IMG/VR virus record: IMGVR_UViG_3300042556_001053
Span: 50,444-114,443 of that record
DNA: 64,000 bases
Source: a virus
Direction: 5' to 3' (one strand)
Part shown: piece after piece, positions 19,362-52,915 of the stretch
Layout of the letters: the number at the start of each line of letters is the position of its first letter
Numbering within the stretch: position 1 is the stretch's first letter
The notes under the pieces: model-generated
What the model was told of the DNA's origin: nothing
Seen by the model: only the letters and a program-made list of their open reading frames with translations
Databases searched by the model: none
Position numbers and translations under genes: made by a program

Positions 19362-19548
19362 AATAAGATAATTATATCATTATTTAAAATTAAGTTCGGC
19401 GGGTGGATATAAAAAATCAAAGTGCTGCCTTTAAGTTTCGCCAGTAAATGAATTGCATTAAAGTCGTCGCCGAAATAGAGATATCAAACCATCACACAGA
19501 CAACATAGGATTGACACAATCCAAGCATGTCTGATACAATGGAATTCT

Positions 19549-20154
19549 ATGCATGATGAATTAAAAAATACTTTAATAGGTGGTTTGCTAGGAAAGCTGG
19601 CAATCCATCATTCGGTATATCGTTTACCGTGTACAAGTGAATATCTAGAAGAACTTGTATCTGATGTGCTAAACGAAAACGGTATGCCAAATGACTGGAA
19701 GCCTGATAGAAGCCATAGCGTCAGCATAGACATGACATTAGAGTCAGGTGAGAGTATTAGTGTCAAGTCAGGAAGATATGACCCAGAGAAGGCTACATTG
19801 GTTATATCTGGGTCTAGGCTGGGCAAACACGAGACATTAGAGAAGATGGTAGAGTCTGTTGCTTCTACACATGCTGATTACTATGTGTGTTTAGCCAAAG
19901 CAGACCAGGATTGGTCTCATATCCCGTCAAAAAATGAGATCAAGACATATCATTTATTTGTCTTTGAAGCATCAAAATTAGATTATGGTTTTGAGCATTG
20001 GTCAAGAAAAGAATCTAAGCATGGCAAAGGTTATAAGTACGTAATGGATATACCAGGTATGTCAGCTACTATACGTCCTACTATGTCTCATCAGTTGTGG
20101 ACTACGGTATCTTGTGATATCATTGGTATACCAACAAAATTGGAGATACTGTGA
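19549..20154 (+). CDS. Putative PD-(D/E)xK restriction-like endonuclease
   Basis: LEELV...SIDMT...ISVKSG catalytic-like spacing; sigma-A promoter TTGACA-17-TACAAT, leaderless. Confidence 0.45.
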   Translation: MHDELKNTLIGGLLGKLAIHHSVYRLPCTSEYLEELVSDVLNENGMPNDWKPDRSHSVSIDMTLESGESISVKSGRYDPEKATLVISGSRLGKHETLEKMVESVASTHADYYVCLAKADQDWSHIPSKNEIKTYHLFVFEASKLDYGFEHWSRKESKHGKGYKYVMDIPGMSATIRPTMSHQLWTTVSCDIIGIPTKLEIL

Positions 20155-21900: not shown

Positions 21901-22490
21901 TCATTTAGTAGCCTTTCGTACTGTATAGAATTTATACCCTGCAATAATAACTGCGCTAGTCAATAGCATTGCCCATGATAGGGATAGATAGATGAAGTCA
22001 CCTGCATCAAGCATGAAGCCATAGTCATTGAGTTCAATAGTCATTGCTTACTTACCTGCCTCAATCTTTTGAATGTTAGCGGTGAACTTCTTGACCTTGC
22101 CTAGGTCGCTATCGTTTAGTGATGCGATGAGGTGGTCAATAGCCTTGACCTCATGTGCGATGTTGTCAATGCTTAGTAGTTTAGAGCCCTGCCAAATTGA
22201 GTAAGTGATTGTCATTGTCATTGTCTGTTCTTCTTTCTTTAGTTAGTTTGTTATAGTGATAATACTAGTAGGGATAGGGGTAAAAGTCAAGCCTTTAGCG
22301 TGTGGTGTTGGTCACACTACCAGCCAAGCACACGCTTGCGGTAGGCTTCTACCTCAGCAATCTGCTCTGGTGTAGCGTTGCGGTATGCCTGAACGCTCTC
22401 TCTAATCCAAGGGGACTTAGCCATAGCCGCCTCATGCTGTACCGCATAGCGTGCTTGCTGTTCTGCTCTTACTCTGTTTAGTGTATCCAT
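21901..22490 (-). CDS. Three small leftward early-type genes (21901-22044, 22048-22221, 22317-22490)
   Basis: Short ORFs with RBS behind minus-strand promoters; the MDTLNR gene resembles the MDTYNR gene at 22974..23120. Confidence 0.55.
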
Positions 22491-22743
22491 TTGATGAACA
22501 CCTTTCTTTAGTTTGTTATAGTAGAATACTATCACACTACCCTGACAAATGCAAGTCCAAACACGGCGTGTCGCATGTGATGTGTACCACATCGCCTCGG
22601 GCCCCCTGTGGTGTAGGTCACATGTGTTCTACGTCACAATGTCCTAAATGTCCGTTTTGTACCCCCCAATTTGTCAGACCCCCCTGTTATACTTACTAGT
22701 ATAAAGAAAGTTAAAAAGGTTTTAACTAAGAAAGGAAAACAAA

Positions 22744-25586
22744 ATGTTTTCACTAAAATACAAAGTAGAGTATAACTCTAATCCTAACTACCCTCTATCA
22801 AAAGAGTTTGGTAATGTTTCTCTAACAGTACCTAGCGAGGTCTACGCTAATGAATACTTAGACCTAGTATCTCAAAGAGGTACTATCCTAGAAGTTTCTC
22901 TAACAGAGTTAGAAAACTACACACCTAGCAATCGTCAGGTGTACGCTACTACTAGAAGTTGGGAGTAATCGTAATGGATACTTATAACAGAATTCTTAAA
23001 GAGCAACAAGAAAAAAGACTTGCTCAATTAGAAAAAAATAAGGCTAGCATAGAGGCTATGTTCTCTAGCAATAGTCGCCCTCTAAATAATAATCATGAAT
23101 TAAAGAAAGTAGAAAACTAATGAGTCACTATGTAAATGTTAAATCAGTTTGTGGAAACGCAACTGCTGCAATTGACATGTATGATTTAGAACTAAACAAC
23201 GAAATTGTTTGTTGTGACAATTGCAAATCAATTTTGATTTGTCGTAATGCTTGGAACGAATTGTATAAGGAGAATAAATAAATGTTAGTTGTAATGATTG
23301 CAATGTTGGTGTTTGGTTTTCTTTACTACCATAGTAATTTATAAACATGCAACGCACTGCATAAAAAAGCTCGGGGCTTCTGTGGTGTAGATCACATTTA
23401 AGTTACGGCGTGTCGCCTTGACTTTTTGACTTTTATCGTGTAGTATTCTACTTATACAATTAAATAAAGATAAATCAGGCAGTGAGCCTAGCAAATAAGT
23501 GTGATGCAAATCACAATGAGCCTAGCGAATAAATGCCCTAATTTGTCAGTACCCCCTGATAGGATAGTCTTATCAATTAAACGAAAGGAAGTCACTCAAT
23601 GACTTACACTGTAACACTAGAAACCTTTAATGGTTCAGTAAAGAAAATCGCTCTACCTTCACGAGGTGCTGTTGCTCAATTTATTTCACAGTATCCTAAC
23701 ACTCTACCTGTTGGCGTATCTGTCAAGGTCGCTTGCGACTCTCTTGCAATTTCTGGAACACTACGAGGAAAGGCTTCACTATAATGAAAATTGAACACAA
23801 TCTAAAGTTTGTCACAGAGTTTGCAGAGGGCCATCCTGTAACAATGCAGATGAGTGCACTACCTGAAACACTACGCATTCAAATGCTTGAGTCAATGCTA
23901 AAAGAGTTAATCGCTCCAAAGTTAGGACCTATCCTTGATGAAATTAACGCAGGCGGGTCCTATGCAATTCTAAAGGTGGTTCAGTAATGATGACACGCAA
24001 AGACTATGTAGCAACTGCAGAAATTTTAAATAAGTTTGCTGACAGAATTGATTCACATGAATTCAATGATTTAGTTTTTGAATTTGGTGAAATGTTTTTA
24101 GCGGACAATCAAAGATTTGTTGTAGAAAAATTTGAAAGTGCTTGCTATGAAAATACAATGTCACACATTCAACAATCAACAAGATACAATCCTAACTTGT
24201 AAAATAAAAAACCTAAGCAAGTTTTAAAACTGCTTGATCTTTTCAAATAAAAAAGCTCGGGGGTTTTCCACAGGCTGTGGATAAGTTTACGTGGTTGTGA
24301 TTTTTCTCACATTTATTGAGCGTCTCACTATTTAAGACTACTTGCTAGTAATTAGATTTTTGTCAGTAGGTAATGATAGGATTACAGAGTAATAAAGTAA
24401 TTAAACAAAAAGAAAGAGGTTGCCACATGGCTACTAAACTATACACAATAGAAAACCTACTTGTAGGAAAAACTTATCGCTCACGAAACCGCCACTTTGA
24501 GGGTGTAATCACACACGCAGAAAAGCGTGAAGGAATTTGGTATGGAGAAAATACTGAGGCGTATGTCGTACAGATTGACACGCCTTCCTATTTGTCAGAC
24601 CGCTATGCTACTGTTGCAGTAAAGATTGGAGAATAATAATGAACACATGGAATTGCATGGATTGCTATGATGAGGGCGTACTCTTTTGGGGTAGCACTAA
24701 TGGCGAATACGATACAGAATTTTGTGAGTGTAACAAGGGTGTTATGCTTTACAACGAATACACCGCATGGTACGCTAGTAATGAATTAAACGAATACACA
24801 TTGGAGAACGCATAATGAACGAATACCTATACTCTGTCACCGCTACCTATGACTCTGCCTCTGCACCTGTTTGGATTGGTCGTTATAGTGATGCTTTATC
24901 TGCCGTTGAAACTTTCCAGCAATTTGTTGATAGTGGAGATGCTAAAGAATACGCAACAATTAACCTGTCTGAACCTTCAGGCAAGATGCACACAAAAACT
25001 TTCTACACTACAGGATTGGTGGTAACACGATAATGGGAAGCAATTTCGCAACAGACCTATCAGAAAACATTGACATAAGCCTTGAACAGGCTATTGGTTA
25101 TCACTTACAGGGTAATCACTATCCACCAGTACCGCTAAGCATGGTGCCAGTATGCATACAGGCTATTGACTTTGCTCATGAGGATAAGTGGGACGAGACT
25201 ATTGAGATGCCTGATGGTATTTCTTATAAGGGCTTAACTGCTGCACCAGTTTGGGCTATTATTGAGCAACACCACTTGCACGCATGGCTACCAGAAAACG
25301 TTGAAGATTTTAACGAAGACTTAGGATTTGAATTAGGATTGGGGTTAGAATAATGAGTGATACAATAATTGACATGGAACTTGTAAAAGCTGATGCATTG
25401 AAAGTAGATGCATTGCAGATTGGCGATCTAATCAGTTACAATGATGAGATTGTTGAAATAACTTTTATTGAATGCGATTCAACAGGAGATAACTATGACA
25501 TTGAAATCAGAAATGATTTTGGTGAAACAGAAGTTGTTCAGTTTGCATTTGATGAAGAAGTTGATTGGTACGTCTACTTAGACTAA
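22744..25586 (+). CDS. Run of small rightward early-type hypothetical genes (22744, 22974, 23120, 23599, 23784, 23987, 24427, 24815, 25033, 25353)
   Basis: Tightly packed, often TAATG-coupled ORFs with AAGGA/GGAG RBS; 25033..25353 has a conserved-looking HLQGNHYPPVP motif. Confidence 0.65.
24208..24236 (+). ncRNA. 3'-UTR H-type pseudoknot, copy 1
   Basis: AAAAC-C-TAAGCA-A-GTTTT-AAAAC-TGCTTG. Confidence 0.6.
24264..24284. promoter_or_regulatory. Inverted DnaA-box pair with 3-bp spacer
   Basis: TTTTCCACA-GGC-TGTGGATAA. Confidence 0.65.
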
Positions 25587-25808
25587 AAGGGGCCGAGGCC
25601 CTGTGATCTACGCCACAATTACGTAAGTTGATATTTTCTCCCATTTCTGGTAAGATTATTACATGAAGAAAAATGCTGAGGAATTAAGACGATTAATGGA
25701 ATTACGTCGTTCTAATGCAGCCTCCGCTGTTCCAAATAAAAAGAAATACAATAGAAAAAAATGTCAGTCCCAAATGCTAAAATTAAGTAAAGAAAGCGAG
25801 TAGCCACC

Positions 25809-26531
25809 ATGACTAAATTACTCAGAAGCAAAGATAGGAAAGTAGCAAATGCCGTCACCCCTAATGGAAAACAAGCAAGTATCGCCAACACGTTTGGTCT
25901 CCCCGCAGGAAAGGCGTACTCATGCCCTGGAGCGACTAGCGTATGCGAGAGTGTTTGTTATGCTGGCAAATTGGAAAAGGTATTCCCAACAGTAAAGAAA
26001 AACCTATTGCACAATTGGGAATTAGTTAAAGACGCTGATCACGATACTATTGAAGCATTGCTTGAAGAGATGATTAAAGATTTTAAGGCTGATTGTGTAA
26101 AGCGTGAAGCGCCTATGCTATTTCGTATTCACTGGGACGGCGATTTCTTTAATGATACTTATACATTCGCATGGAAGCATGTCATCCTTAATAATCCTGA
26201 TATTCAGTTCTGGGTATACACACGTGTGAAGAGTGCAGCGGTAATGCTTAAGGATATCCCTAACCTTAGTCTTTATTACTCTACAGATAGTGAGAATAAG
26301 TCTATTGGCGTTACCCTGAAAAAAGATCATGGTATAAAGCTTGCATACCTTGCTAAGAATTTCTTAGTAGGACAGGCAGACATGAAAGAGATGATTGGCA
26401 AGGTAGGCGCTAAGTGTCCTGAGAATAAGAAAGCCATTCCCCTAATCTCAACAAATGGAAGCGCTTGCGTTTCTTGCTCATTGTGTGTATACTCTAAGAG
26501 CGACATAGTATTCTCGTCAAGCAAGAAATGA
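25809..26531 (+). CDS. Gene product 88-like (radical-SAM-related) protein
   Basis: FGLPAG..SCPGATSVCESVCYA, FRIHWDGDF, FWVYTR motifs. Confidence 0.75.
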   Translation: MTKLLRSKDRKVANAVTPNGKQASIANTFGLPAGKAYSCPGATSVCESVCYAGKLEKVFPTVKKNLLHNWELVKDADHDTIEALLEEMIKDFKADCVKREAPMLFRIHWDGDFFNDTYTFAWKHVILNNPDIQFWVYTRVKSAAVMLKDIPNLSLYYSTDSENKSIGVTLKKDHGIKLAYLAKNFLVGQADMKEMIGKVGAKCPENKKAIPLISTNGSACVSCSLCVYSKSDIVFSSSKK

Positions 26532-26720
26532 GGAGATAAATGGAAAGTCTAGTTATCCTATCACTAATAGGGTTGTTAGTCTTGCTAATCAACCAATAAT
26601 GTGACATAAATCACACCCGCAAGCGTCTCAAATAGTGAGAAATACAAGAAATGGAGTTGAAAAATGTCAGTAGGAAATGTTATACTTAATACATACAACA
26701 AACTAACAAGGAGAAAAAAC

Positions 26721-26888
26721 ATGACAGTAGCAACAAACACATACAAGGTAGGCGACCTCTACACATCTCAGAAGTCAAAGGTAACAGGAACAATTCTTGA
26801 AATCTCACCTACTGCTAAGGACACAGTTCGTGTGAAGTTAGATGTAAATGGCAACACACGCTGGACAACATGGAAGGCTAATGCGTAA
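26721..26888 (+). CDS. Small SH3/KOW-like protein
   Basis: AGGAG RBS; YKVGD...VTGTILEI...VRVKL. Confidence 0.6.
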   Translation: MTVATNTYKVGDLYTSQKSKVTGTILEISPTAKDTVRVKLDVNGNTRWTTWKANA

Positions 26889-26902
26889 TTAGTTAGTTCT
26901 AT

Positions 26903-26929
26903 GTCCTGAGCATGACTCTAAACTGCTCA
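26903..26929 (+). ncRNA. 3'-UTR H-type pseudoknot, copy 2
   Basis: GTC-C-TGAGCA-T-GAC-TCTAAAC-TGCTCA. Confidence 0.6.
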
Positions 26930-26992
26930 CACTAAAAATGTCAGACCTACCCCCTATACTATAAATAAACCACCAAAGAAAAGAGAAACCAC

Positions 26993-27415
26993 ATGGCAAG
27001 AAGCAAAGCAATCTCAGTAAAGATAGCAACACCAAAAGTAATCAAGGCACTAGAAACTCGTCTAGCAAAGTTACAATCAGACTATGCCTCACAAGAAGCA
27101 AACGAAGCAAAGTTTGAGAAGGCAAGAGAAAAGTGGCAGAAGGAAGTAGCAAAGTTTGCTATGACTCATTTTGCTAAAGCAGAAAACCTACGCACAAACT
27201 ATCGCTCATGGAATAAGACACTTAATGTTGATTTTGATTTAACAGTTAGTGAGTCAGACTTTCCTAAAGAGCCTGAGAAGGACTACGAAGTTCTACACCG
27301 CCACTCATACAATGAGATGAAAGAGGAACTAGAAAACGCAATTCGTATCCTCAAGATGACAGATGAGGAAACAGTTAGCACTAGCACATACAACGCTATT
27401 GCTCGTTATCTCTAA
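26993..27415 (+). CDS. Hypothetical early protein (helical)
   Basis: 140-aa ORF behind the TGTCAG promoter at 26939. Confidence 0.7.
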   Translation: MARSKAISVKIATPKVIKALETRLAKLQSDYASQEANEAKFEKAREKWQKEVAKFAMTHFAKAENLRTNYRSWNKTLNVDFDLTVSESDFPKEPEKDYEVLHRHSYNEMKEELENAIRILKMTDEETVSTSTYNAIARYL

Positions 27416-27503
27416 TTAGATTGAGAGATGGGGGAGGGTATTTGACTCCCCCGTCAAAATCTAGTACAATTAAATTAACCAAACAAACAGAAAGCAGGCC
27501 CCC

Positions 27504-27923
27504 ATGGACCAGGTAACAAAAGTAGATAACCATTTCATGACACGAGAATTTCTTGAGTCACAATTAGTAGCAAACAAAGAGCGTATTGCTCAATTAGAAA
27601 AGCACATCCAAGAAGTAACTCAGCGCTCATATGGTGAGGCTGCAGAACGTAACCGCATGCGTAATGAAATGCATGAGTGGACCTTAGAACAAGTTAACGA
27701 TTCAGTTATCTCAGAAGATACTGCACAAGAGATTGCAGACATTTGTGGCTTTGAGTTAACACAAGAATTTGAATTGGAAGTTTCAGTTCAGTATTCAGTT
27801 ACAGTTAATGCACGTAATGAAGAAGAGGCAATGAACCTAATGTATGACATTGATTTTGATTCAGTGTCACATCCTGACGGCGTAACTTATTTGTCATCAA
27901 CAGTTGACAGAGTGGATATTTAG
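27504..27923 (+). CDS. Hypothetical early protein
   Basis: 139-aa ORF; TTGACT-17-TACAAT promoter. Confidence 0.7.
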   Translation: MDQVTKVDNHFMTREFLESQLVANKERIAQLEKHIQEVTQRSYGEAAERNRMRNEMHEWTLEQVNDSVISEDTAQEIADICGFELTQEFELEVSVQYSVTVNARNEEEAMNLMYDIDFDSVSHPDGVTYLSSTVDRVDI

Positions 27924-27939
27924 TAGGGGGTCTACTAAT

Positions 27940-27967
27940 AAACCTGAGCATGTTTTAAAACTGCTCC
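27940..27967 (+). ncRNA. 3'-UTR H-type pseudoknot, copy 3
   Basis: AAAC-C-TGAGCA-T-GTTT-TAAAAC-TGCTCC. Confidence 0.6.
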
Positions 27968-28132
27968 TTCAATTCCCTTGAAAAAATGCTCGGGCCCTGT
28001 GAGCTAGATCACACTATGATTTACGACACATTAAAAAAATGTCCATTTTCTCCCATTTTTAACTATCCTGATTTGCATTTGTCAGTGGCCTTGTGTATAC
28101 TTAAATTATCAACAACAAAAAGGAGAAAACTC

Positions 28133-29149
28133 ATGGCACATGAACTAGAGACACAAAATGGCGTAGCAAGTTTTGCATCATTTCGTGAACCCGCTTGGCA
28201 TGGATTGGGTACCGTATTTACAGAAGAAAAAAACACAGCAGAGATGTTGCAAGCAGCAAATCTCAATGGGTGGAATGTTCGTCTGGAAGATTTGGAAACC
28301 CCATCACATTTAACAAGCGACAAAAACTATCAGTACGTTTTGCGTACTAATCCTACAGACAACTCACAGACAGACATTCTTGGTGTCGTAGGTGAGCGCT
28401 ACCATGTTATGCAGAATGAAGATTTGTTTTCATTTGGTGATAACATTCTAGATGGTGGTGGACGTTGGGAGACCGCTGGCTCAATCAAGGGTGGACGTGT
28501 TGTATTTGGTGCACTAGCACTAGAGCGTGAAACTGTTCTTGACCCTAACGGTGTCGCAGATAAGGTAAAGACTTATTTACTTATCAACACATCACATGAT
28601 GGCTCAATCGCTATTCAAGCAAGCATTACACCTGTTCGTGTTGTGTGCGCTAACACTCTTAACCTTGCATTGAATACAACTAAGCGCAAGGGTGGCGTAA
28701 AGCAATCTTTCAAGATTCGTCACACACAGACAGCACAAGGTAAGGTCGCTATTGCACGCCAGACATTGGGCATGGCTAACGCTTACATGGATTCATTTGA
28801 CATCATGGCTAAGGCAATGATTGAAAAAGAAATCAATGCTAAGCAATTTAACGACATCATTCTTGCTGCATACCCTCAGCCTGACAAGGACACTAAGGGC
28901 GCACTAAAGAAGTGGGAAAACAAGGTTGATGTTATCAATGACATCTACACAGGCCAGTTTAATGGTATGATTGCTGGTAACGCATGGGGTGCTTTCAATG
29001 CACTAACAGAGCGTTTAGATTGGTACCGTTCTGCTCGTGGTGGTTCTAACGAATCTATCCTTGCATCTGCAAGTGGTTTTGACCCTGCTATCAATGCAGA
29101 AAAAAATCGTTTGCTAAAAGTTGTACAGAATGTTATGCAACTAGCATAA
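28133..29149 (+). CDS. DUF932 / TIGR03299 phage-plasmid-like protein
   Basis: MAHEL...REPAWHGLG, ETAGSIKGG, NTSHDGS, TPVRVVCANTL, IRHT motifs; AGGAG RBS. Confidence 0.85.
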   Translation: MAHELETQNGVASFASFREPAWHGLGTVFTEEKNTAEMLQAANLNGWNVRLEDLETPSHLTSDKNYQYVLRTNPTDNSQTDILGVVGERYHVMQNEDLFSFGDNILDGGGRWETAGSIKGGRVVFGALALERETVLDPNGVADKVKTYLLINTSHDGSIAIQASITPVRVVCANTLNLALNTTKRKGGVKQSFKIRHTQTAQGKVAIARQTLGMANAYMDSFDIMAKAMIEKEINAKQFNDIILAAYPQPDKDTKGALKKWENKVDVINDIYTGQFNGMIAGNAWGAFNALTERLDWYRSARGGSNESILASASGFDPAINAEKNRLLKVVQNVMQLA

Positions 29150-29155
29150 TAAAAA

Positions 29156-29182
29156 ATCCTGAGCATGATGTAAAACTGCTCA
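29156..29182 (+). ncRNA. 3'-UTR H-type pseudoknot, copy 4 (2 nt before tRNA-Asp)
   Basis: ATC-C-TGAGCA-T-GAT-GTAAAAC-TGCTCA. Confidence 0.6.
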
Positions 29183-29184
29183 AT

Positions 29185-29258
29185 GGTCTGTTAGCTCAGT
29201 TGGTTAGAGCGCTACCCTGTCACGGTAGAGGTCGTGGGTTCAAGTCCCATACAGATCG
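29185..29258 (+). tRNA. tRNA-Asp(GUC)
   Basis: Full cloverleaf; CTACC-CTGTCAC-GGTAG anticodon arm; GGTTCAAGTCC T-arm. Confidence 0.95.
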
Positions 29259-29689
29259 CAAGAATTTAGGCCGAGGCAATTTGGACAAAACGGACATTTT
29301 AAGAAGCTATATAATTAATCTCAGAAATTTTAATTAAGAGGACTTGCTTTTTTTCGCAGATTCCTGTAAAATTAATATCATGAACACCATAAACGAATTA
29401 ATAAATGAAATCTATGATGACAACTACTCTCACCTAGAGTTTGAGGAAAACATGGGCGGTATTGATTGTGACTGCCATATCCACACTACACTAAACACTA
29501 TTGCTAGATATGCAGGAATTGAGGTAGGGTAATGTTAGGATATTGTAAAGAAGATCTAGATGAAATGATTAGCGCTGTTCAATCTGCTTTAACTACTGTT
29601 AATCCTGATGATGACCCATGGCTACATGATAACTTATTTAAAGTAACAGAGTTTATGAATGGCTTATGGGCAGAGGGGTACTTTGACTA

Positions 29690-29881
29690 ATGTGGACTAA
29701 GTATAGTTATGTTTGTACTAACTGTGATGCTCTTATTGAGATCACTACCCTGGCAATTCCTGAAGACAATGCCTCTTGCACCTGTATGCGTGGAGCTTGG
29801 GTAACACGTACTGCAGTAGAGGCTGTGACTAACATCACACCACCAAAAGTTGTAAAAATCAACACCAACCCTTATAATTAA
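29690..29881 (+). CDS. Small zinc-ribbon protein
   Basis: CTNC...CTC. Confidence 0.55.
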   Translation: MWTKYSYVCTNCDALIEITTLAIPEDNASCTCMRGAWVTRTAVEAVTNITPPKVVKINTNPYN

Positions 29882-30053
29882 TATATGGACATGAACACAC
29901 TAAGCGAGTATCTAAAGATTCACAAGATAAGTATTGAGCAAGACATGGAGCAAGCCCTACAAGGTGATGACCCTGGAGAGGGATTCCATTGGGAGTCAGA
30001 TGACTACTACCTAGGAGCACTAGACGCATACGACTATGTATTGGAGTTAATTA

Positions 30054-30329
30054 GTGAGTAAGGATTATCCTTTCATACCGCCACACCTAGAGAAGGGCTT
30101 AGAGGATATCTCTATCCCTTTGATTGACCTTATGCATGGGCACCTCAAGGTAGAAATGCTGGACTGTGAAGAACAATTAAATAATCTATCAGAGACTCAG
30201 GATGTGCCTATGTATAACTATGTGCAGGGATACATGGAGGCCTTGACAAACCTATACTGCTTGACGTATAATTTAAGTATAGACCGCCAACAAATAGAAA
30301 GAGACCACCATGCCAAACTGGGTATATAA
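30054..30329 (+). CDS. Hypothetical protein
   Basis: GTG start with GGAG RBS; YVQGYMEAL motif. Confidence 0.55.
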   Translation: MSKDYPFIPPHLEKGLEDISIPLIDLMHGHLKVEMLDCEEQLNNLSETQDVPMYNYVQGYMEALTNLYCLTYNLSIDRQQIERDHHAKLGI

Positions 30330-31005
30330 CGGACTGACCATTGAAGGTAGCCCTGACTCTGTAAAGAAGTTAATGGAGCAGATGAATACACCATTCGTTC
30401 GTGTCCATGACCAATGGAATGTAAAGACACAGCAAATGGAAAAGCAACAGGTTACATATCCAAACCCTGTCTTTGCATTCTGGAATATAATTAAACCAAC
30501 TGACATGGAAGCATACGACGGTCCTCAACCTAAGAATGACAACTTTGAAGAGGCCATGAAGTTTAAGTCAGACCACTGGTACGATTGGAATGTTCGCAAC
30601 TGGGGAACTAAGTGGGATGTAGCCGTCTCATCTCTTGAAACTAATCCTGATACATACATGGAAGAAACAGCCAATGGTGAGAACCATGTTGTCTACTATA
30701 ACTTTGAGACTGCATGGTCTCGTCCTATGAGTGCTTTAACTAAGTTATCTGAACAGTACCCTGATTTATTATTTACTTTGTCATATGAGGAAGAGACTGG
30801 CTGGGGTGGCGAATGTGAACTGCTTCGTGGTAAAGTTATCTCAGAGTCACAGTATGACAACATGTGCCGTAATTGCGACGGTACCTACCTAGATAATGAA
30901 ATCGTAGGTTGTGATGACTGTGGAGACTATCCATGCCCTCTATGTGGCTGGAGCAATGACATGTGTGAAGCACACCAAACTAGATATGAGGACCAACATG
31001 CCTAA
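30310..31005 (+). CDS. YubB/DUF1281 ferredoxin-like domain protein with Cys-rich tail
   Basis: MPNW..N.L, WYDWNVRNWGTKWD, FETAWS, YEEE motifs. Confidence 0.75.
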   Translation: MPNWVYNGLTIEGSPDSVKKLMEQMNTPFVRVHDQWNVKTQQMEKQQVTYPNPVFAFWNIIKPTDMEAYDGPQPKNDNFEEAMKFKSDHWYDWNVRNWGTKWDVAVSSLETNPDTYMEETANGENHVVYYNFETAWSRPMSALTKLSEQYPDLLFTLSYEEETGWGGECELLRGKVISESQYDNMCRNCDGTYLDNEIVGCDDCGDYPCPLCGWSNDMCEAHQTRYEDQHA

Positions 31006-32145
31006 GACTACTTATCTTATTGAACTAGCCGTTGATGAAGAATGGTTTCATGCAATTAGTGAACTGACTGCAGATGTACACGAGGGTGAAATATGCGAAT
31101 GGGTCAGGGTACAGGCAGAGACTGAGACTGATGATCAAGACTGTGAGAACTGCGAAAGCAATCCTAAAGAGCACCCTGAAGGCAAGTGGTGCACATCATG
31201 CAGGGATGAATTTAAAGAGTCTGAGGAGGACGACGAATGAACTGGACACAGCCATCGTTATTTGATACAATTGAAGAACACACTACAGATAAGGAACAAG
31301 AATGCACAAAGAGTCACTACTAGAAGTTGTTAACTTTATTGAAGCCATCATTGATGAACTGGAATGTGAACTTATTCCTCTTGATGAGGTTGCAGACACA
31401 CCAGAAGAACTAACAGCAATGATTGCACTACAAACCAAAATTGATACTCTGTCAGAACTAATCCTTGACATGATGTCATTTGATTGGGAGGAGAAGTAAT
31501 GGGAGCTCGTATAAACTTTGTATTTAAGGATGACCTTGATTCAGCAGTGGTCCTATACAGTCACTGGGGCCAGACAGAATGGCAGCGGGATATAGCAATG
31601 GCGCTAAATCATGCTAAGCCTAGATGGACAGACTCATCATATGCCACACGTATGATGATTAGTTACCTTATTCAAGATAGCGTCCTGGAAGAAACAGGTT
31701 TTGGTATCTACTCTATCACTGGTACCAACTATGATTTAGGGGAGCAGACAGTAGTTATTGATTTAATTAATCATACAGTCACTGATATCCATCCTGTCAA
31801 ATGGGATAACTTTATCCAAGCATATTTACCTGAGCACGCAGCGGTATAAAGCAGACGCTGCAACGGGGGAGTGCGATTTGTGGTGGGTTGCGCTCCCCCC
31901 TTATTTTTGATACAATGAACTGAGGGAGAACCATGAGACGAAAACTAATAACCAAAGAAGAAAAGATAGCAATCCAACTATCCAATGTCTTAGCAGACCT
32001 ACGCCTTGACCTTGACCTAGTGGGACATCATCTTGCCCAATCATCTCCCAACGTAATCTACAATCGTTTAATTACTATTGCAGACTCAGCGGAAGCAACT
32101 AAGCAAGAGCAATACAATCACTACAACAACTACAAACTATTCTAG
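30998..32145 (+). CDS. Four small hypothetical genes (30998-31240, 31302-31499, 31499-31849, 31933-32145)
   Basis: Coupled ORFs; 31499 has an MGAR...LYSHWG motif. Confidence 0.6.
31865..31908 (+). terminator. Intrinsic terminator-like hairpin
   Basis: GGGGGAGTGCG...CGCTCCCCC followed by TTATTTTT. Confidence 0.65.
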
Positions 32146-32189
32146 AAAGGCTGCAGCGGTGGGCTTGACAAAAGCCTGCCGTTGTGCCC

Positions 32190-32995
32190 GAGGTGGTCAA
32201 ACCACTTCTTCAAACCTTATTACGATCAAACCATTTTTTTCCCATTTTCGGACATTACGACAGCTCAAAAAAATTCTCCTAATTTTAGACATTACGAACG
32301 ATCAAAAAATTTTCCAGATTGTAGCATATCAAACCTTTCTTTGTCAAACCATGTTATAATGGTTTTATGCCAAGAGATCATTTTTCTCAAATGAGTAAGA
32401 ACTCATCTCATCGCCATGATCAACCACATGATATAGAAACCTTCAATAAAGACTTTGGTGCTATATGTGGTATGTTGTATAGTGTTATAACTCTTAAGTG
32501 TTTCTTTCCTAAGTCCCCCGCCCAAAGCGTGACTAATAATCCTGTCACTCATTCTGCGGGACGGTATATACAAGAACAACTACCATTCTAAATCCCTATA
32601 GTATATAAGACATTACGATATCAAACCTTTTCTCCTGGTTTTTGATATATTTTTAAATATTATCAAACCTTTCTATTATATTTCTGGACATTTTGGGCAA
32701 TTTTGTATAGGGTTTTATATAAGGTTTGTAAGGTTTGATACTTGACAAATGTGAGGTTTGGGTATATAATCCAGGCAAGATGTAAGGTTTGAAGGTTTGG
32801 TATGTGAGGTTTGAAAGCCGTTGACATTACGGCCCCATCTGTATAAATGCTCAATAACCCACTAGACATATCCAAACCAGATGTAAACCATATATAAAAA
32901 ATATCAGTAAGATTTATATGTGGATAACTTGTGGATAACTATGTGTAAAACCACTAATTTGAGCTATCTAAATTATCGTTTAGCCTGTGGATATC
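32190..32995. repeat. Iteron-like repeat region with DnaA boxes (candidate origin or terminus signal)
   Basis: 7x TCAAACC then 6x GGTTTG; 5x ATTACG; TGTGGATAA at 32919 and 32930; TGTGGATAT at 32986. Confidence 0.65.
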
Positions 32996-33437: not shown

Positions 33438-34250
33438 TTACTTCTGGTATGCCCAGATTCCTCTAAATTCTCTATCGGCGGAGTTAAAACCGCCCGTCAC
33501 AGCATGGGCGCACTTGAATAGATCTGGTATAACAATATCGCCCTGTTGCCATTTATGAACGATTCTAATATCTTCATTGTCCATAATTATCTTCTCTATT
33601 TTTCGTATTAATGAGTAAAAATAATCTAAAGATTCTTGAGATGGAGATTCATTTTTATAAGAGACCAAAGGAACTATATGAGGTTCTGGTAGTATCATAA
33701 ATCTAATAATTGGCTTATTAGTCAGCCAGTGATTGTCAATGATAGGGTGCTGGTCTGACAAATTTGTGCTTGCACTAAGATATCCAGACTTTACCTGAGA
33801 ATCTTTAATAAAATCTGGTTCAGTTATTATACTATCAAGAAGAAACTGCTGCTCATGCTCTGTTAACATATCAAAGACAAGGCCTGTATCTACAAAGTAT
33901 GTCTTGCCATTGTTGTTATCTGTCTTAAAGTTATACATATTCCACGTTGCTGCAACGATTGGATTTATATAGTAAGTGTGCTCAATATGCCACTCTACTA
34001 TCACATCATCTGGTCCAGATTCAATGTGAGACTTACGTTCATGATTTTCAACATACTCGCTTGTATCATCAGCATGTTTCCATCCCATAAGGCTGCCAAG
34101 CCTAGCTCCAAATTCAAACTGCTCTTCTTGGGTTAGGTTAGCATTTCTAAAACATATTACAGAGTCATTAATAAACTTGTTCTTGTAATACTCTATATTA
34201 TCAAGTACAGATTCAATACCAGGAAACTCTATAGGCTCTACACTTATCAC
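33438..34250 (-). CDS. TauD/TfdA family dioxygenase
   Basis: VICFRN, WHIE, G.TYFVD, HKWQQGDIVIPD...H...R motifs. Confidence 0.8.
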   Translation of the reverse strand: MISVEPIEFPGIESVLDNIEYYKNKFINDSVICFRNANLTQEEQFEFGARLGSLMGWKHADDTSEYVENHERKSHIESGPDDVIVEWHIEHTYYINPIVAATWNMYNFKTDNNNGKTYFVDTGLVFDMLTEHEQQFLLDSIITEPDFIKDSQVKSGYLSASTNLSDQHPIIDNHWLTNKPIIRFMILPEPHIVPLVSYKNESPSQESLDYFYSLIRKIEKIIMDNEDIRIVHKWQQGDIVIPDLFKCAHAVTGGFNSADREFRGIWAYQK

Positions 34251-36892: not shown

Positions 36893-37672
36893 ATGTATAA
36901 TGCCAAACTAAACAATGAGGCTTTTTTTGAAACAGATTTAGATAAACTTTCGGAAATCTGGGAACCAAGAAAAGAATATATAGACAAAGATTTATGGGTT
37001 ATTAGAAACTTTTTGATACCGCCTGAATTAGAATGGCTAAACAATGAAGCAAATGATCCAGATGGCTGGTACACAACTATGAGATCTCCTTATGGTGGAA
37101 ATATAAAAAATAAATTTTTAGGGTATATACCAGATTATGATGAAAATGGAAACATGCTTGTTCCTACAGAGCATTCAAAATGGAGGGAAAGAGATCATAT
37201 TAATTATATAGAAAAAAGAATAGAGTCTGTTGTACCTAAATATTTTGGTGGAGCTGGTGCTCTTCAGTCTTTCTTTGAAGTTTCTGATGAACAAATTTTT
37301 CAAGAAACTGGAAGAACAGATATTGATTATGCAATGGGATGGCATTATGAAAGAGATGATAGTGACTCAGAAAACCAACAAACAACTATTGTAGAAAACT
37401 CAAAAACACAAGGTAAAAGAATTAATAGTCAAGGGAAAATATCAGGATCTTTTAATGTTTACATTAATGATAATTTTGATGGTGGAATCTTAGAGTTTAG
37501 AAATAAAGATTATGTTGTTAAGCCAGAGGTTGGAATGCTGGTGAATATTCCTTTGTATAAAGAGTTTGAGCACAGAGTAACAAAGGTTACAAATGGAAAT
37601 AGACACACGATCTATGGAAGATCTTGGGATATTCAGGATGGAAAATATTTCTCTACTAACGAAGACTGCTAG
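36893..37672 (+). CDS. 2OG-Fe(II) oxygenase, P4H-like
   Basis: WHYE...YINDNFDGG...HRVTKV..GNR. Confidence 0.8.
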   Translation: MYNAKLNNEAFFETDLDKLSEIWEPRKEYIDKDLWVIRNFLIPPELEWLNNEANDPDGWYTTMRSPYGGNIKNKFLGYIPDYDENGNMLVPTEHSKWRERDHINYIEKRIESVVPKYFGGAGALQSFFEVSDEQIFQETGRTDIDYAMGWHYERDDSDSENQQTTIVENSKTQGKRINSQGKISGSFNVYINDNFDGGILEFRNKDYVVKPEVGMLVNIPLYKEFEHRVTKVTNGNRHTIYGRSWDIQDGKYFSTNEDC

Positions 37673-38775: not shown

Positions 38776-39900
38776 CTATAAGCGATTTATCTGCCTATTT
38801 ACAAACTCTAAGAACTTTCCTGTTAGTAAAGTAAAACCTAGCTCTGGTTTAGAATTAACACACTCTGCACTAACCAAATACTTTGCCCACTCCTTAACTG
38901 CAGCCTTATTCTTGCCAGAAGTGTCTGCCAGAAGGTAGGATACAATACCTAGAGGGTATGCTCCAGGTTCTTTGGTTGCATAGTCGTATGTAAGTATGTT
39001 GTTTGAGTCAACTGATGCTTCTCCTAAGAAGGCTGACACATTTGCACTGTCTGGTGCTACGAAATTACCAGATGCATTTCCTATGTTTGCCACCTTAAGA
39101 TTAAAGAACTTAGCAAATGATACCTCTGCATATGTAATAGAATACTTAGTCTTTGATGCAAGTGTTGCTACACCCTGTGACTGATTTGCTCCAACAACTC
39201 TTCCCATGTTATTAATATCATTAATGCTCTTTGGGAATGATGTTGAGAATGAATCAGATACAGCTTTTGTCCAAACCTCTGGAGAGTTTGCCTTCATAAA
39301 TCTAACAAAGTTATTTGTTGTTCCAGAGTTATCAAGTCTAAAGACTACCTTTATCTTTTGGTTTGGTAGTGTGTAAACAATGCTTTTGGTAGCAGTTCTT
39401 AGTATTACTGGATTTCCAGACTTATCCTTAACTAGATTACCAGCCTTATCTTTTCTATATATAACTTCTTTAATCTTTCTATTGTTATCAGCCTTAATAG
39501 CAGGATCATTCCACATTGTTATTTCTCCCGCAAAAATCTTAGCTACTGTAGTTGATGATAAATATAGCTGTCTGTTTCCTGGGATATTGTGCATCACTGC
39601 GATAGGTGCTGCAACAACTGGAATGTGGATTACTGATGGCTTCTTTGTTGATGCTGTGTGTGCAGAGTCTGAGAACCAGAAATCTCCAATGCCCTTATCA
39701 GATGAAGTCTTACCAGCACCAGATCCGTTTGCTGAATATGTAACAATGTTTCCTGTTGACTTGGCATAAGATGATCTGCATTCATCAATAAGGTTTGCTG
39801 GAAAAGATGCTCCATTACCAACAATATTTTCTGCTGCAAAAGCAGGGGTAGAAATAGATAGAGCAGCAACGACTGCTATTAGGATAAGTTTAATTCTCAT
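38776..39900 (-). CDS. pstS: Phosphate ABC transporter substrate-binding protein
   Basis: Signal peptide; GNGASFP, GSGAG, IFAGEITMWNDPAI, R.DNSGTT..F, AYPL motifs. Confidence 0.9.
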   Translation of the reverse strand: MRIKLILIAVVAALSISTPAFAAENIVGNGASFPANLIDECRSSYAKSTGNIVTYSANGSGAGKTSSDKGIGDFWFSDSAHTASTKKPSVIHIPVVAAPIAVMHNIPGNRQLYLSSTTVAKIFAGEITMWNDPAIKADNNRKIKEVIYRKDKAGNLVKDKSGNPVILRTATKSIVYTLPNQKIKVVFRLDNSGTTNNFVRFMKANSPEVWTKAVSDSFSTSFPKSINDINNMGRVVGANQSQGVATLASKTKYSITYAEVSFAKFFNLKVANIGNASGNFVAPDSANVSAFLGEASVDSNNILTYDYATKEPGAYPLGIVSYLLADTSGKNKAAVKEWAKYLVSAECVNSKPELGFTLLTGKFLEFVNRQINRL

Positions 39901-39949
39901 AATAATAGTATATAGTAAATAAACTATATTATGGCAAATAATAGGCTCA

Positions 39950-39982
39950 TTTAACCAAGTGTTCACCTGATGTTCTACTTGA
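39950..39982. promoter_or_regulatory. PHO-box-like 11-nt direct repeats upstream of pstS
   Basis: TTTAACCAAGT GTTCACCTGAT GTTCTACTTGA, resembling the actinobacterial PhoP GTTCACC-N4 unit. Confidence 0.55.
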
Positions 39983-42197: not shown

Positions 42198-43247
42198 TTG
42201 AAAGATTCTATTTTTATAGCTATAGCTGCTTGTAATGAAAGATTTATAGAGCAAACAGTTAGAAGCGCATTAACTAATGCAGAGAATCCAGACAATATAT
42301 TTTTTGGAATATTTAACAATATTACTGATCCTAAAAAATCATTATTATCAAATGACTATATTACAAAAAACAAACATATTTTTTATGCAGAAATCATAAC
42401 TCCATGTCCTATGGGTATAGGCTTCGGCAGATTAAATGCTTCATTGTTACAGTTTAAAAAATTTGATTATATGTTTCAGATAGATGCACATACTCTTTTT
42501 CCAAAGAATTGGGACAAAAGCATTATAAGTAGCTTCAACTTAATAAAAAATGAAAATGATATTGATGAAAACAAAATTATTGTATCATCTTCATCACCAA
42601 TTATATGGTATAACTTTAAAGAAGATCCCTATAAAATTATGATTAATAAGACTAATAAATCTTCTAGTGATTTTATTGAAATAGATCCTTATAACTTAGA
42701 AGAGTATTTTTCAAAAGATATAGAGTCTGGAGCAATAAAAGTAAAAATGTTCTATGATGGAAAACAAGGAGATGTTCTTCTTGAAGGAAATTTAGGATTT
42801 CCAATGGTATATGGTGAAAGAAAGATAAAAGAAGGATTACAGTATGAAGAAACAAATGGCGTTCATGCTTCCTTTATGTTTTCAAAAGCTAATCTTAATA
42901 GAGATTTATTACACGACCCAGAGGATACTTTTGATGGAGATCAAACTAACTACAGCATAAGATTATTGAGTAGAGGCTATCGCATATTTTCTACTAAGTA
43001 TCCAGTAATAGCATGCTTAAACAAGCAAGAGGAGCATAAGATCTATGATCCAGAGTATAATCATAGAGCTGCTGAATATTCTAATGAAACTCCTGCAGCA
43101 AACTATCTTTCTTATAAGCATAACGATGACAGAGATTTTTTTAAAGACATTATTTCTGGTAAGTATTTTGGATATTGGGGAGCACCAGATATGGAGTCTC
43201 TTAATCTTGCTAAAAAACAAATTCAATATCCAGAATTTAAAGGTTAG
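42198..43247 (+). CDS. Gnt1/GT60-like (hydroxyproline) GlcNAc-transferase
   Basis: SIFIAIAA..E...QTV..A...A.NP..IFFGI, GIGFGR, QIDAHTLF.KNWD, F.GDQ...SIRL..RGY.IF motifs. Confidence 0.65.
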   Translation: MKDSIFIAIAACNERFIEQTVRSALTNAENPDNIFFGIFNNITDPKKSLLSNDYITKNKHIFYAEIITPCPMGIGFGRLNASLLQFKKFDYMFQIDAHTLFPKNWDKSIISSFNLIKNENDIDENKIIVSSSSPIIWYNFKEDPYKIMINKTNKSSSDFIEIDPYNLEEYFSKDIESGAIKVKMFYDGKQGDVLLEGNLGFPMVYGERKIKEGLQYEETNGVHASFMFSKANLNRDLLHDPEDTFDGDQTNYSIRLLSRGYRIFSTKYPVIACLNKQEEHKIYDPEYNHRAAEYSNETPAANYLSYKHNDDRDFFKDIISGKYFGYWGAPDMESLNLAKKQIQYPEFKG

Positions 43248-43258
43248 AAAAAGTACAA

Positions 43259-43332
43259 GCACCAGTAGCCAAGTTGGTTAAGGCATCAGTCTTATATACT
43301 GAAGATCGTAGGTTCAAGTCCTGCCTGGTGTA
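43259..43332 (+). tRNA. tRNA-Ile(UAU)
   Basis: Cloverleaf with TCAGT-CTTATAT-ACTGA anticodon arm; discriminator A. Confidence 0.9.
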
Positions 43333-43352
43333 CGTGTGATATACTTAATATT

Positions 43353-43448
43353 ATGAAAAATATTATATTAAATTTTCAATATTATATTGAAAAAATATAT
43401 AGATTTGTTTTTAGAAAAAACAAAAAAAGGAAAGAATATATATACTAA
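43353..43448 (+). CDS. 31-aa basic micropeptide
   Basis: MKNIILNFQYYIEKIYRFVFRKNKKRKEYIY; TAATG-coupled; TGATATACT promoter. Confidence 0.5.
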   Translation: MKNIILNFQYYIEKIYRFVFRKNKKRKEYIY

Positions 43449-44380
43449 TGAAAGATATTGAAAACATTATAGATAAAAAAAAATTATTTTCATCAACAAA
43501 ACAAAACGCACCATTTGACAATATAACTCAAAACTTACTAATGTTTCAAGATGTTGTTGCTTGGCCTGATCCAGATGAAAGCATAGATTTTTATAACCTA
43601 GATAATCATGAATATGTTTATAACGGTTGGTCAGACTATTTAGTTAACAGACTTTATATGAGGTCTCCAAAATTTAATAAAAGCAATAGTATACTAACTA
43701 GCGGATGCTCACATAGCTGGGGAGTTGGCATTAAAGATACACTAACATGGTCAAACCTTGTTGCAGAAAACTATAAATTAGGCTATTCAAATGTTGCTCT
43801 TCCTGGGTCATCAGTTATGCTTCAAGTATTAAATATATTTCAATATTGTAATACCTTTGGTAATCCAAAAATTATACTATGTATGTTCCCAAATTTTGAA
43901 AGAATAAGAGTTTTTGTTGAAAATAATATTTTAGAAGGAGATACATTAACAAAATATAATTTTGGTCCTGCAAATGCATTTACAAATAGAATAATAAACA
44001 AGCCAAAGATCACCAAACTACCAGCCAACAAAGACATTCTGGTATCTGAAAATCATGCTTTTTACAATAGTGTGTGCTTTATTATGATGTTAGAAAAATA
44101 TTGTAAGTCAAATAATATAAAACTTGCATGGTCTTCTTGGGAACATGAAAAATATAATGATCCATTTAATAACATTTTTGAAAATTACATAAACAATAGT
44201 GCTGGATTAAATGCACAGAATATATCTAACTGTAAGAGTCACCAAGATTTAAGAGATGCATTCCCTGATATTTATGATGAAGCAGCTGATGTTCCAAAAG
44301 GACACTTTGGTATTCATTGGCACAAGCATGTATCAGAGCTTTTTATTAATGAAATCAATCAGAAAAATCTATTATCTTAA
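43448..44380 (+). CDS. SGNH-like protein
   Basis: GCSHSWGVG..TW, NVALPGSS, C-terminal D...GHFG...H. Confidence 0.6.
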   Translation: MKDIENIIDKKKLFSSTKQNAPFDNITQNLLMFQDVVAWPDPDESIDFYNLDNHEYVYNGWSDYLVNRLYMRSPKFNKSNSILTSGCSHSWGVGIKDTLTWSNLVAENYKLGYSNVALPGSSVMLQVLNIFQYCNTFGNPKIILCMFPNFERIRVFVENNILEGDTLTKYNFGPANAFTNRIINKPKITKLPANKDILVSENHAFYNSVCFIMMLEKYCKSNNIKLAWSSWEHEKYNDPFNNIFENYINNSAGLNAQNISNCKSHQDLRDAFPDIYDEAADVPKGHFGIHWHKHVSELFINEINQKNLLS

Positions 44381-45796: not shown

Positions 45797-45882
45797 TAAT
45801 AAATAAAATTTCTTTTTTTTGTTTTTCTTTTTTTAAAGAATATAAGTATTTGGTAGAATTTCCACCTAATATTATTTATCAT
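45796..45882 (-). CDS. 28-aa basic micropeptide
   Basis: MINNIRWKFYQILIFFKKRKTKKRNFIY; TAATG-coupled to the carbamoyltransferase. Confidence 0.5.
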   Translation of the reverse strand: MINNIRWKFYQILIFFKKRKTKKRNFIY

Positions 45883-46777: not shown

Positions 46778-46871
46778 TGTTATAATATTCTTTCCCCTAC
46801 TTTAAGAACAACTTATTAATTGTATCATGTATTTGACTTTTAGGTTTATACCATGTATACTTATATTAAAT

Positions 46872-46943
46872 GCCTTTATAGCTCAGCGGAAGAGCGGACG
46901 GTTTCTACCCGTTAGGTCGGAGGTTCAAATCCTTCTAGGGGCA
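46872..46943 (+). tRNA. tRNA-Arg(UCU)
   Basis: Cloverleaf with GACGG-TTTCTAC-CCGTT. Confidence 0.9.
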
Positions 46944-47516: not shown

Positions 47517-47556
47517 AAGCCTAGTATATCAGAGTCTCTGGTGTATAATGATATGT

Positions 47557-51715: not shown

Positions 51716-52670
51716 TTTTCCTCCTCAGATGGTAAAAGTTTTTTTAGCTCTTTATACTCTTGTGATATTTTTTTCATTGAGTGATAGTGTGGATAAGCAT
51801 CTCCTACTAACCCATACTCATCAAAGTATGCGATCTCTGGCTCAATTTCATTAACAAACTTTTTAAGACCAGACTGAACATCTTCAATATATTCGTATGC
51901 CCAATCACGAGAGTCAGATAAAAACTTGATAAAGTTTTCTTTGTGCACGTCGTTGTCAGACTCTTGTTGCTTAGTGCTATTAAAAACATCTTGCACCTTT
52001 ACTAAAGACATAGCTAGGGTTAACATTCTTTGTCTAAGCAGAATAACCTTTAATGTCAATAAAATTGATGCCGTACTAACAGCAACAAGCAATAGTCCAA
52101 TTATCATTGTAGTTAAATCCATTTATTTTACCGCTTCCCTAGATACTAACACAATTGCACCCTCCATCTCAAGAGCATTCTTAAGCTGAACAACATACTG
52201 TAATGCTTTTATTTTTTCATCATGATTCATAGAAATAAAGTCATACTCATTAAGTTTGATTGTAAGGAAATGATCATTGTCTATTAGTTTTACTGAAAAA
52301 CCTTTAGGAGCAGTAATAGAGTGAAATGCTCTACGCATTGAATCAGTGTACATTTACTTTAATCCTTTTTCTTATCAACAAAATTAAATACTTCTTCAAG
52401 TGTTTCCCAGCCCATGTCTTCATCAACTTCTAACGCTGCAAGAAATATATCCCATGTTTCATAAACATACTGTGTTGCAAGTTCATTTGGCTCAACAAGA
52501 TCGTTGTCAACTAGGAATGCAATTGGAAGTCCAATATCGTTATATTCAATAAAATCCTTAAAGTATTTATCTGACTTATAGTCCATCCATAGTTCACCTA
52601 GTATTGAGCATATTGACTCAAAACTAGTTACTTCTTTTCTATTGTTAGACTTGTCCACATTTGACCCCAT
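51712..52670 (-). CDS. Three hypothetical genes (51712-52122, 52123-52353, 52359-52670)
   Basis: Contiguous operon-like ORFs. Confidence 0.65.
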
Positions 52671-52915
52671 TTTTCTTTAGTTCTATGTCTACTAAACTCT
52701 CTGGATATTTCACCGTTCTCTAAGTATATACCGCCCCAAACACCCCACTCTTTGCCTGACACACCGTTAGCAAAGCATACCCTTTGAACTGGGCATGACT
52801 GACATAAGGAATCTATTTTTGGTCTTAAAGATTCATCTTCTTCGTATTTATCAAAAAATAAATTAGTATCTGAATCAAAACAACGTCCTTCATCTTTCCA
52901 TAAGTGTTGTTTCAT
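52628..52915 (-). CDS. whiB: WhiB family transcription factor
   Basis: C...D..LFF...CQSCPVQRVC...GVWGG. Confidence 0.9.
   Translation of the reverse strand: MKQHLWKDEGRCFDSDTNLFFDKYEEDESLRPKIDSLCQSCPVQRVCFANGVSGKEWGVWGGIYLENGEISREFSRHRTKEKWGQMWTSLTIEKK

Follow-up and report, generated by a model that had tools for sequence, protein, structure and literature searches.

A block of small genes in the genome of a lake phage carries nine copies of the element TGTCAG-N10-TAnnnT, which we predict to constitute one class of promoters that lack a −35 box and instead combine a −10 hexamer (TAnnnT, mostly in the extended form preceded by TGn) with TGTCAG. The elements lie between positions 22526 and 28101 of the 64,000-nucleotide (nt) stretch of DNA analyzed here (hereafter the window; positions 50,444 to 114,443 of IMG/VR record IMGVR_UViG_3300042556_001053). 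The best-supported and most economical explanation for these elements is that they are read by the PafBC regulator of an actinobacterial host of the acI group, and we consider this explanation probable. PafBC is a WYL-domain heterodimer that inserts between region 4 of σA and the DNA and reads a GTC triplet, a mechanism called sigma adaptation, wherein PafB makes its contact at positions −23 to −28 and GTC is conserved (PMC8635444). Single-stranded DNA is named as the trigger of PafBC in PMC11804915, and the corresponding RecA-NDp promoters of Mycobacterium and other Actinobacteria are treated in PMC8635444, PMC6789036, and PMC11804915. By promoter geometry, the phage TGTCAG occupies positions −28 to −23, which is the position of the PafBC −26 element. 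A preliminary description of this DNA had equated TGTCRG-N10-TAnnnT with the element read by PafBC, which fits both this geometry (PMC8635444) and the host regulon described below.

All nine elements of that description were recovered at its coordinates and on its strands. Across the whole genome, the pattern TGTCAG-N10-TAnnnT matches at 13 places, all of which are in the window. The chance expectation for the window is 0.93 ± 1.04 matches, and none of 100 shuffled sequences reached 13. When spacer lengths of 4 to 21 nt were tried across the genome, 10 nt alone was enriched (13 matches versus at most five at any other length), and thus the exact spacing that had been claimed is the only one favored. 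The four matches in addition to the nine (at 24044, 30505, 33760, and 36670, each on the minus strand) are intragenic, three of them antisense, and are probably either chance occurrences or unproven sites. These four matches, along with the extended −10 of most of the promoters, had escaped the preliminary description.

Each of the nine elements faces a downstream gene, as had been noted, and in every case a start codon with a Shine-Dalgarno sequence follows within 24 to 50 nt. The single leftward element, TGTCAG-GGTAGTGTGA-TAGTAT with TGn (22526..22547, minus strand), forms the leftward half of a divergent pair and is located 35 nt from the ATG at 22490. The other eight are on the plus strand. 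These begin with TGTCAG-ACCCCCCTGT-TATACT (22672..22693; TGn; ATG at 22744, 50 nt downstream), followed by TGTCAG-TACCCCCTGA-TAGGAT (23544..23565; TGn; ATG at 23599, 33 nt downstream) and TGTCAG-TAGGTAATGA-TAGGAT (24361..24382; TGn; ATG at 24427, 44 nt downstream). Two sites reside within the 3′ end of the preceding open reading frame (ORF), yet are only 24 to 25 nt from the next start codon: TGTCAG-ACCGCTATGC-TACTGT (24593..24614; TGn) is 24 nt from the ATG at 24639, and TGTCAG-TCCCAAATGC-TAAAAT (25762..25783; TGn) is 25 nt from the ATG of the GP88-family gene at 25809. The final three are TGTCAG-TAGGAAATGT-TATACT (26665..26686; TGn; ATG at 26721, 34 nt downstream), which occurs as an identical 22-mer in complete genomes of related phages, TGTCAG-ACCTACCCCC-TATACT (26939..26960; no TGn; ATG at 26993, 32 nt downstream), and TGTCAG-TGGCCTTGTG-TATACT (28080..28101), located 31 nt upstream of the ATG of the DUF932 gene at 28133. 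The TGn of an extended −10 is therefore present at seven of the nine sites, and the two sites without it still keep the hexamer. With a weight matrix built from related phages, the eight plus-strand sites score 22 to 35 bits (34.7 bits for the site at 22672 and 34.6 bits for that at 25762), and the next plus-strand site of the window scores at most 5 bits. Because the remaining promoters of the phage are either canonical (TTGACA-N17/18-TAnnnT) or plain extended −10 promoters, the TGTCAG sites represent a distinct and spatially clustered class.

Five of the promoters are preceded by a conserved module of approximately 60 to 90 nt, which follows the upstream stop codon (modules at 22590-22660, 23362-23420, 24245-24320, 25586-25650, and 27985-28060), with a variable distance between module and promoter. 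Its core consists of AAAAAGCTCGGGGCC-CTGTGGTGTAGATCACA, followed by TTACG and at times by TTTTCTCCCATTT, and a search of Rfam gave no match to it. Elsewhere in the window, a canonical promoter of the form TTGACA-18-TGATACAAT (19511-19549) ends 8 nt from the ATG of a gene for a 201-amino acid protein whose family is unassigned. This predicted placement implies a leaderless or near-leaderless transcript, which is frequent in actinobacteria.

The element is retained among related lake phages. We collected relatives by scanning for the DUF932 protein and used the best 80 of 401 related IMG/VR stretches. In these 80 loci, 590 sites are on the gene strand versus 35 on the opposite strand, and a spacer of 10 nt yields 591 matches versus no more than 75 for any other spacer. 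The hexamer on the gene strand is almost invariant (583 TGTCAG and eight TGTCGG). A sequence logo takes the form A-W-W-TGTCAG-(T/A)-S-S-...-TGn-TAnAAT, in which the hexamer, TGn (present at about 70% of the sites), and the −10 are kept while the flanks and spacer vary. For the 460 unique gene-strand sites represented in the logo, there are no conserved bases 7 to 12 nt upstream of the hexamer that could correspond to a −35 element, and an A/T preference directly 5′ of the hexamer is the only upstream signal. Five complete relatives (105 to 111 kb) have 10 to 13 sites each versus 0 to 2 for a control pattern, and their sites are co-oriented in a single block of 8 to 9 kb with a divergent site at the block edge. 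The site approximately 32 nt upstream of the DUF932 gene is retained in nearly all 80 relatives. This pattern of sites indicates selection on a functional element rather than repeated DNA. Assembled contigs of relatives from RNA libraries (wastewater, estuary, and freshwater, some of which are possibly DNA) also span the region; the four that were examined contained no read starts.

The host of the phage is very likely an acI actinobacterium (Nanopelagicaceae), based on the similarity of its PstS protein, the presence of a WhiB-like gene, and an actinophage gene set. The PstS gene used for host assignment (38776..39966, minus strand) encodes a protein that is 50 to 57% identical to proteins of Ca. 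Planktophila/Nanopelagicales, whereas all other matches are near 30%. The WhiB-like gene (52628..52915, minus strand; PF02467 match at 52727-52900, E 2e-12) is a signature of actinobacterial hosts and has counterparts in the lake relatives as well as in Streptomyces phages of the Stanwilliamsviridae family, and the GP88, DUF932, and DnaE genes of the phage are common to actinophages. Thus, the actinobacterial host of the preliminary description stands, but PstS and WhiB place the phage with acI/Nanopelagicaceae instead of the Mycobacterium or Corynebacterium named there. Cultures of Ca. Planktophila exist (PMC10202952, PMC12817590). The acI phages that have been isolated are 39-kb phages unrelated to the present one.

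We examined the probable host lineage through a complete acI chromosome (G001; 1.32 Mb, 48% G+C). This chromosome has tandem WYL-domain genes that encode proteins of 329 and 318 amino acids. One of these matches PafB of structures 7P5X and 9FND (E 5e-40; 7P5X contains mycobacterial PafB in a complex with RNA polymerase) and conserves R46 and R50, which are the DNA-reading arginines of PafB (PMC8635444), and the second matches PafC. The question of whether the host carries pafBC, which the preliminary description had raised, can therefore be answered in the affirmative for the acI lineage.

The same lineage uses the element in front of its own DNA damage genes. Upstream of recA, the acI chromosome carries TGTCAGTGGCCCCTGATACCTT followed by a LexA box, and the first 11 bases of this promoter are identical to those of the phage promoter at 28080 (TGTCAGTGGCC). 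All three palindromic LexA (SOS) boxes of the chromosome directly follow a promoter of the TGTCRG-N10-TAnnnT type. In 61 genomes of the family, searched with any base allowed at the final two positions of the hexamer, we found 58 such composites of promoter and LexA box in 44 of the genomes, and none with a control pattern; these two positions are mostly AG or GG, as in TGTCAG and TGTCGG. When a matrix made solely from the phage sites was applied to the acI chromosome, the top intergenic matches included genes for an AdnAB-like helicase-nuclease, RmuC, UvrD/PcrA, RecA, a LysM protein (whose gene also has a LexA box), and CarD. The phage element is, at the level of sequence, indistinguishable from the DNA damage promoter element of the host. 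The raw pattern count in the acI chromosome does not exceed that of the control (9 versus 13), and the regulon is visible from the positions of the matches only. The strict pattern is exact upstream of recA in 6 of 27 acI genomes, and many others have GCGTGTC(G/T/C), whose distance from the LexA box varies. Because only these six are exact, recA alone is a poor probe, and therefore the SOS-box-linked promoters were used. Some acI lineages have TGTCTG or TGTCGT where the phage hexamer is near-invariant, and a comparison of phage and host hexamer variants gave no signal of covariation in either direction.

Several features of these host genomes were observed alongside the regulon. In many Nanopelagicaceae, the strict TGTCRG-N10-TAnnnT is replaced in front of recA by GGCGTGTC(G), which precedes the LexA box by a varying number of nucleotides. 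The element GGCGTGTCGC from acI recA upstream regions is present twice in phage intergenic DNA (22563-22572 and 23407-23416) and could be a variant PafBC site or the site of another factor. The LexA regulon is apparently tiny in the streamlined genomes of this family (G001, with its three palindromic boxes, and 60 others). Because LexA boxes are fused directly behind PafBC-type promoters, host damage genes seem to need activation as well as derepression. A region of the acI chromosome (G001:C1:705161-709361) contains three strong PafBC-type boxes inside 2 kb, which front genes for a 494-amino acid zinc-finger protein (sub-threshold Pfam matches only, with weak CapR homology), a 122-amino acid protein without a family, and a PQ-loop membrane protein. 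This region may represent an island under PafBC control with a role other than repair.

If host PafBC reads these promoters, then the regulator, once loaded with single-stranded DNA, would recognize the phage TGTCAG via σA, and the appearance of single-stranded DNA in the cell would switch on or enhance the transcription of approximately 30 small phage genes. Such DNA could arise when the incoming phage genome is processed or replicated, or when sunlight damages the host. Some basal activity that is independent of PafBC probably comes from the extended −10. Activity of this kind would ease the problem of how transcription begins at the start of infection, yet would leave room for TGTCAG to serve as an operator or as a PafBC decoy. 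The genes of the block are probably early, a label whose sole basis is that the block is syntenic with the early region in the terminal repeats of Streptomyces phages. On balance, we favor the broader proposal that a lytic phage family has swapped the −35 boxes of its early cassette for the −26 element of host PafBC, such that the single-stranded DNA sensor of the host would launch the phage program without a phage transcription factor.

Several observations weigh against a role for host PafBC. The hexamer of the phage sites is always TGTCAG, and the bases that follow it (T/A, then C/G-rich) fit the mycobacterial 'GTG' loosely: measured against the consensus tTGTCRgtg, the site at 28080 has TGG, the others have T/A and then C/G, and only one of the nine has TG. 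The acI host sites are themselves variable at these positions (GGG, TGG, AGG, and CCC). The extended −10 of seven of the nine sites could work without an activator, and this feature is rare, by inspection, in the PafBC-type promoters of the host. It would also be odd for the genes that open an infection to depend on an activator that requires single-stranded DNA. The closest cultured relatives make no use of this motif, and most of the small phage proteins have no recognizable family, which gives room for a reader encoded by the phage. Moreover, the host was deduced from gene similarity rather than from an isolate, and the case that these sites depend on PafBC is built from sequence.

One alternative is that a phage-encoded factor reads TGTCAG and reprograms host σA in the manner of MotA and AsiA of phage T4, with the likeness to the host box being a product of convergence or mimicry. 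T4 middle promoters likewise carry a box near −26 to −30 in place of the −35 (PMC8635444), and the hexamer varies much less among phages than among hosts. The reader could be a small protein without a family, of which the block encodes approximately 25, or the WhiB-like protein, which belongs to a family that binds σA region 4 and is the only recognizable σA-binding factor of the phage. Streptomyces relatives without the motif, however, likewise have WhiB. No match in the phage was found to the WYL domain PF13280 (E ≤ 1), to AsiA or MotCF (the C-terminal domain of MotA; E ≤ 1, six frames), or to sigma-70 region 4 (sigma70_r4), and the acI PafB and PafC proteins gave a best tblastn E value of 0.59 and no phmmer match. 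A factor of this type would have to converge on the hexamer of the host, the exact 10-nt spacing, and the G/C-rich downstream flank, and it would need to be made elsewhere first, as the first leftward and rightward promoters of the block are of the same class. We judge this alternative to be unlikely. The preliminary description had offered a choice between use of the host alarm and a phage mimic of PafBC, and of these the use of host PafBC is the better supported, whereas the mimic lost ground with the failure to find a WYL or PafBC homolog in the phage.

A second possibility is that the extended −10 sequences (TGnTAnnnT) are self-sufficient promoters and that TGTCAG is either an operator over the spacer for a repressor or timing factor, or a decoy that blunts the damage or defense response of the host by drawing away PafBC. 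The frequency of TGn in this phage and its relatives is consistent with this idea, as is the fact that the other phage promoters are of the extended −10 or canonical TTGACA types. Replication would multiply the 10 or more strong PafBC sites of each genome, and a low-copy regulator could conceivably be titrated. An asymmetric 6-bp element at a fixed distance of 10 nt and in a single orientation is instead suggestive of contact with RNA polymerase rather than with a dimeric repressor, and the hexamer is kept at the two sites that lack TGn. A decoy would have no need for fixed spacing from a −10 or for a position in front of genes. We therefore assign to this possibility, too, only a small chance, set a shade below that of a phage-encoded reader. 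The notion that the pattern arose by chance, or by copying of one duplicated segment without a common function, can draw on the four intragenic matches, which are chance-like. This notion is effectively refuted by the shuffled sequences, the single enriched spacer length, and the strand bias of 590 to 35 among relatives, and the spacers and flanks differ among copies, which argues against repeated DNA; we give it almost no weight.

WYL regulators such as PafBC are regarded as host alarms for repair and antiphage defense upon the appearance of single-stranded DNA. If host PafBC does read the phage promoters, this alarm would become an ignition or boost signal for a widespread and abundant family of lake phages, and phage expression in surface waters would be linked to ultraviolet damage. 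It would also be the second natural example, after T4 MotA/AsiA, of a sigma factor that is re-aimed away from the −35, here using host parts only, the first hijacking of sigma adaptation, and the first class of phage promoters to depend on a WYL-domain activator of the host. For Mycobacterium smegmatis, PafBC, pafBC deletion mutants, and in vitro systems are available, and the hypothesis is directly testable. Our literature searches retrieved papers on PafBC, RecA-NDp promoters, and WYL regulators of phage defense, and in none of these were PafBC-type promoters reported for a phage, in keeping with the lack of precedent asserted earlier. PMC12848934 cites work from 2025 on PafBC and resistance to mycobacteriophages. 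PafBC-type promoters are already known, as are phages whose expression is tied to damage regulators of the host, and it is the combination of the two that would be new.

The virus record comprises 114,443 bp (37.5% G+C) and is rated 100% complete, and the window is its final 64 kb. The genome encodes a siphovirus gene set (a 1,780-amino acid tape measure protein, portal, protease, and terminase). Its DnaE-type polymerase shares 55% identity with its closest counterparts, which are from Streptomyces phages of the Stanwilliamsviridae, and the GenBank phage collection contains no near-identical phage. The rightward block (22744..32591, plus strand) consists of approximately 27 mostly tiny genes under the eight plus-strand promoters and includes GP88 (25809-26531), DUF932 (28133-29149), a tRNA-Asp gene (29185-29259), and a strong terminator (31865-31899). 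Three leftward small genes (22317-22490, 22048-22221, and 21901-22044; together 21901..22490, minus strand) are under the promoter at 22547. Pfam searches with 30 proteins in and around the block identified GP88, DUF932, a DUF1281_C domain, and TauD, and revealed no DNA-binding domain.

Auxiliary genes of the type found in aquatic phages are also present in the window (33438-34250, minus strand; 36893-37672, plus strand; 38776-39966, minus strand; and 42198-49600), and these encode a TauD-family dioxygenase, a 2OG-Fe(II) oxygenase, PstS, a carbamoyltransferase, and three glycosyltransferases. The window also contains five dispersed tRNA genes. Upstream of the window, a region of approximately 3.3 kb between two tail genes (23366-26718 in genome coordinates) holds only short plus-strand ORFs of 49 to 154 amino acids, separated by gaps of 100 to 300 nt that resemble coding sequence rather than intergenic DNA. 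This region may be a large gene that is broken or read in an unusual manner. A temperate lifestyle, with damage-triggered induction of a prophage, was considered as an explanation and set aside because no tyrosine integrase was found in the phage, with serine recombinases not included in the search.

The phage sites resemble PafBC-dependent (RecA-NDp) promoters in having TGTCRG with a conserved GTC at −28 to −23, exactly 10 nt to TAnnnT, and no −35, and in that recA, adnAB-like, uvrD, and rmuC genes are preceded by this element in an inferred host lineage that encodes both PafB and PafC. Unlike the host promoters, they are borne by a phage, 9 to 13 of them are clustered in one gene block, their hexamer is fixed as TGTCAG, most have TGn, none has a LexA operator, and the downstream genes are not repair genes. 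The arrangement also recalls T4 middle promoters, which likewise form a phage class, with a box located between −35 and −10 that stands in for the −35 and a housekeeping sigma factor directed to new targets, as is proposed here. T4, however, supplies both the activator and the co-activator for its MotA box at −30, whereas no phage homolog of these was found here and the box is that of the host regulon.

Coliphage 186 (via Tum), CTXφ (via rstA), and Bacillus phage GIL01 are wired to LexA, and in these phages, as proposed for the present one, expression is tied to the damage state of the host through sites for a host factor on phage DNA. Those systems operate by LexA derepression, usually at one or two promoters belonging to temperate phages. 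Here, in contrast, a host activator would act at many promoters of a phage in which no tyrosine integrase was found and in which no LexA box is present anywhere. The layout is also like that of the terminal-repeat early cassettes of the Stanwilliamsviridae (Paradiddles, Wakanda, and BillNye), where numerous tiny genes likewise have individual promoters. Orthologs of GP88 and DUF932 (49% and 52% identity) occur in the same order in the terminal-repeat early region of Streptomyces phage Paradiddles. Cassettes of the Paradiddles type nevertheless use a TTGACA-like −35 with a (TG)TAGACT −10, and among cultured actinophages, scanned as these three Streptomyces relatives only, TGTCRG-N10-TAnnnT is at chance level (three matches in Paradiddles, one in Wakanda, and none in BillNye). 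Because the cassette layout is shared with the Streptomyces phages while motif counts in the latter are those of chance, the comparison of sequences indicates that the promoter class is what was exchanged in the lake lineage.

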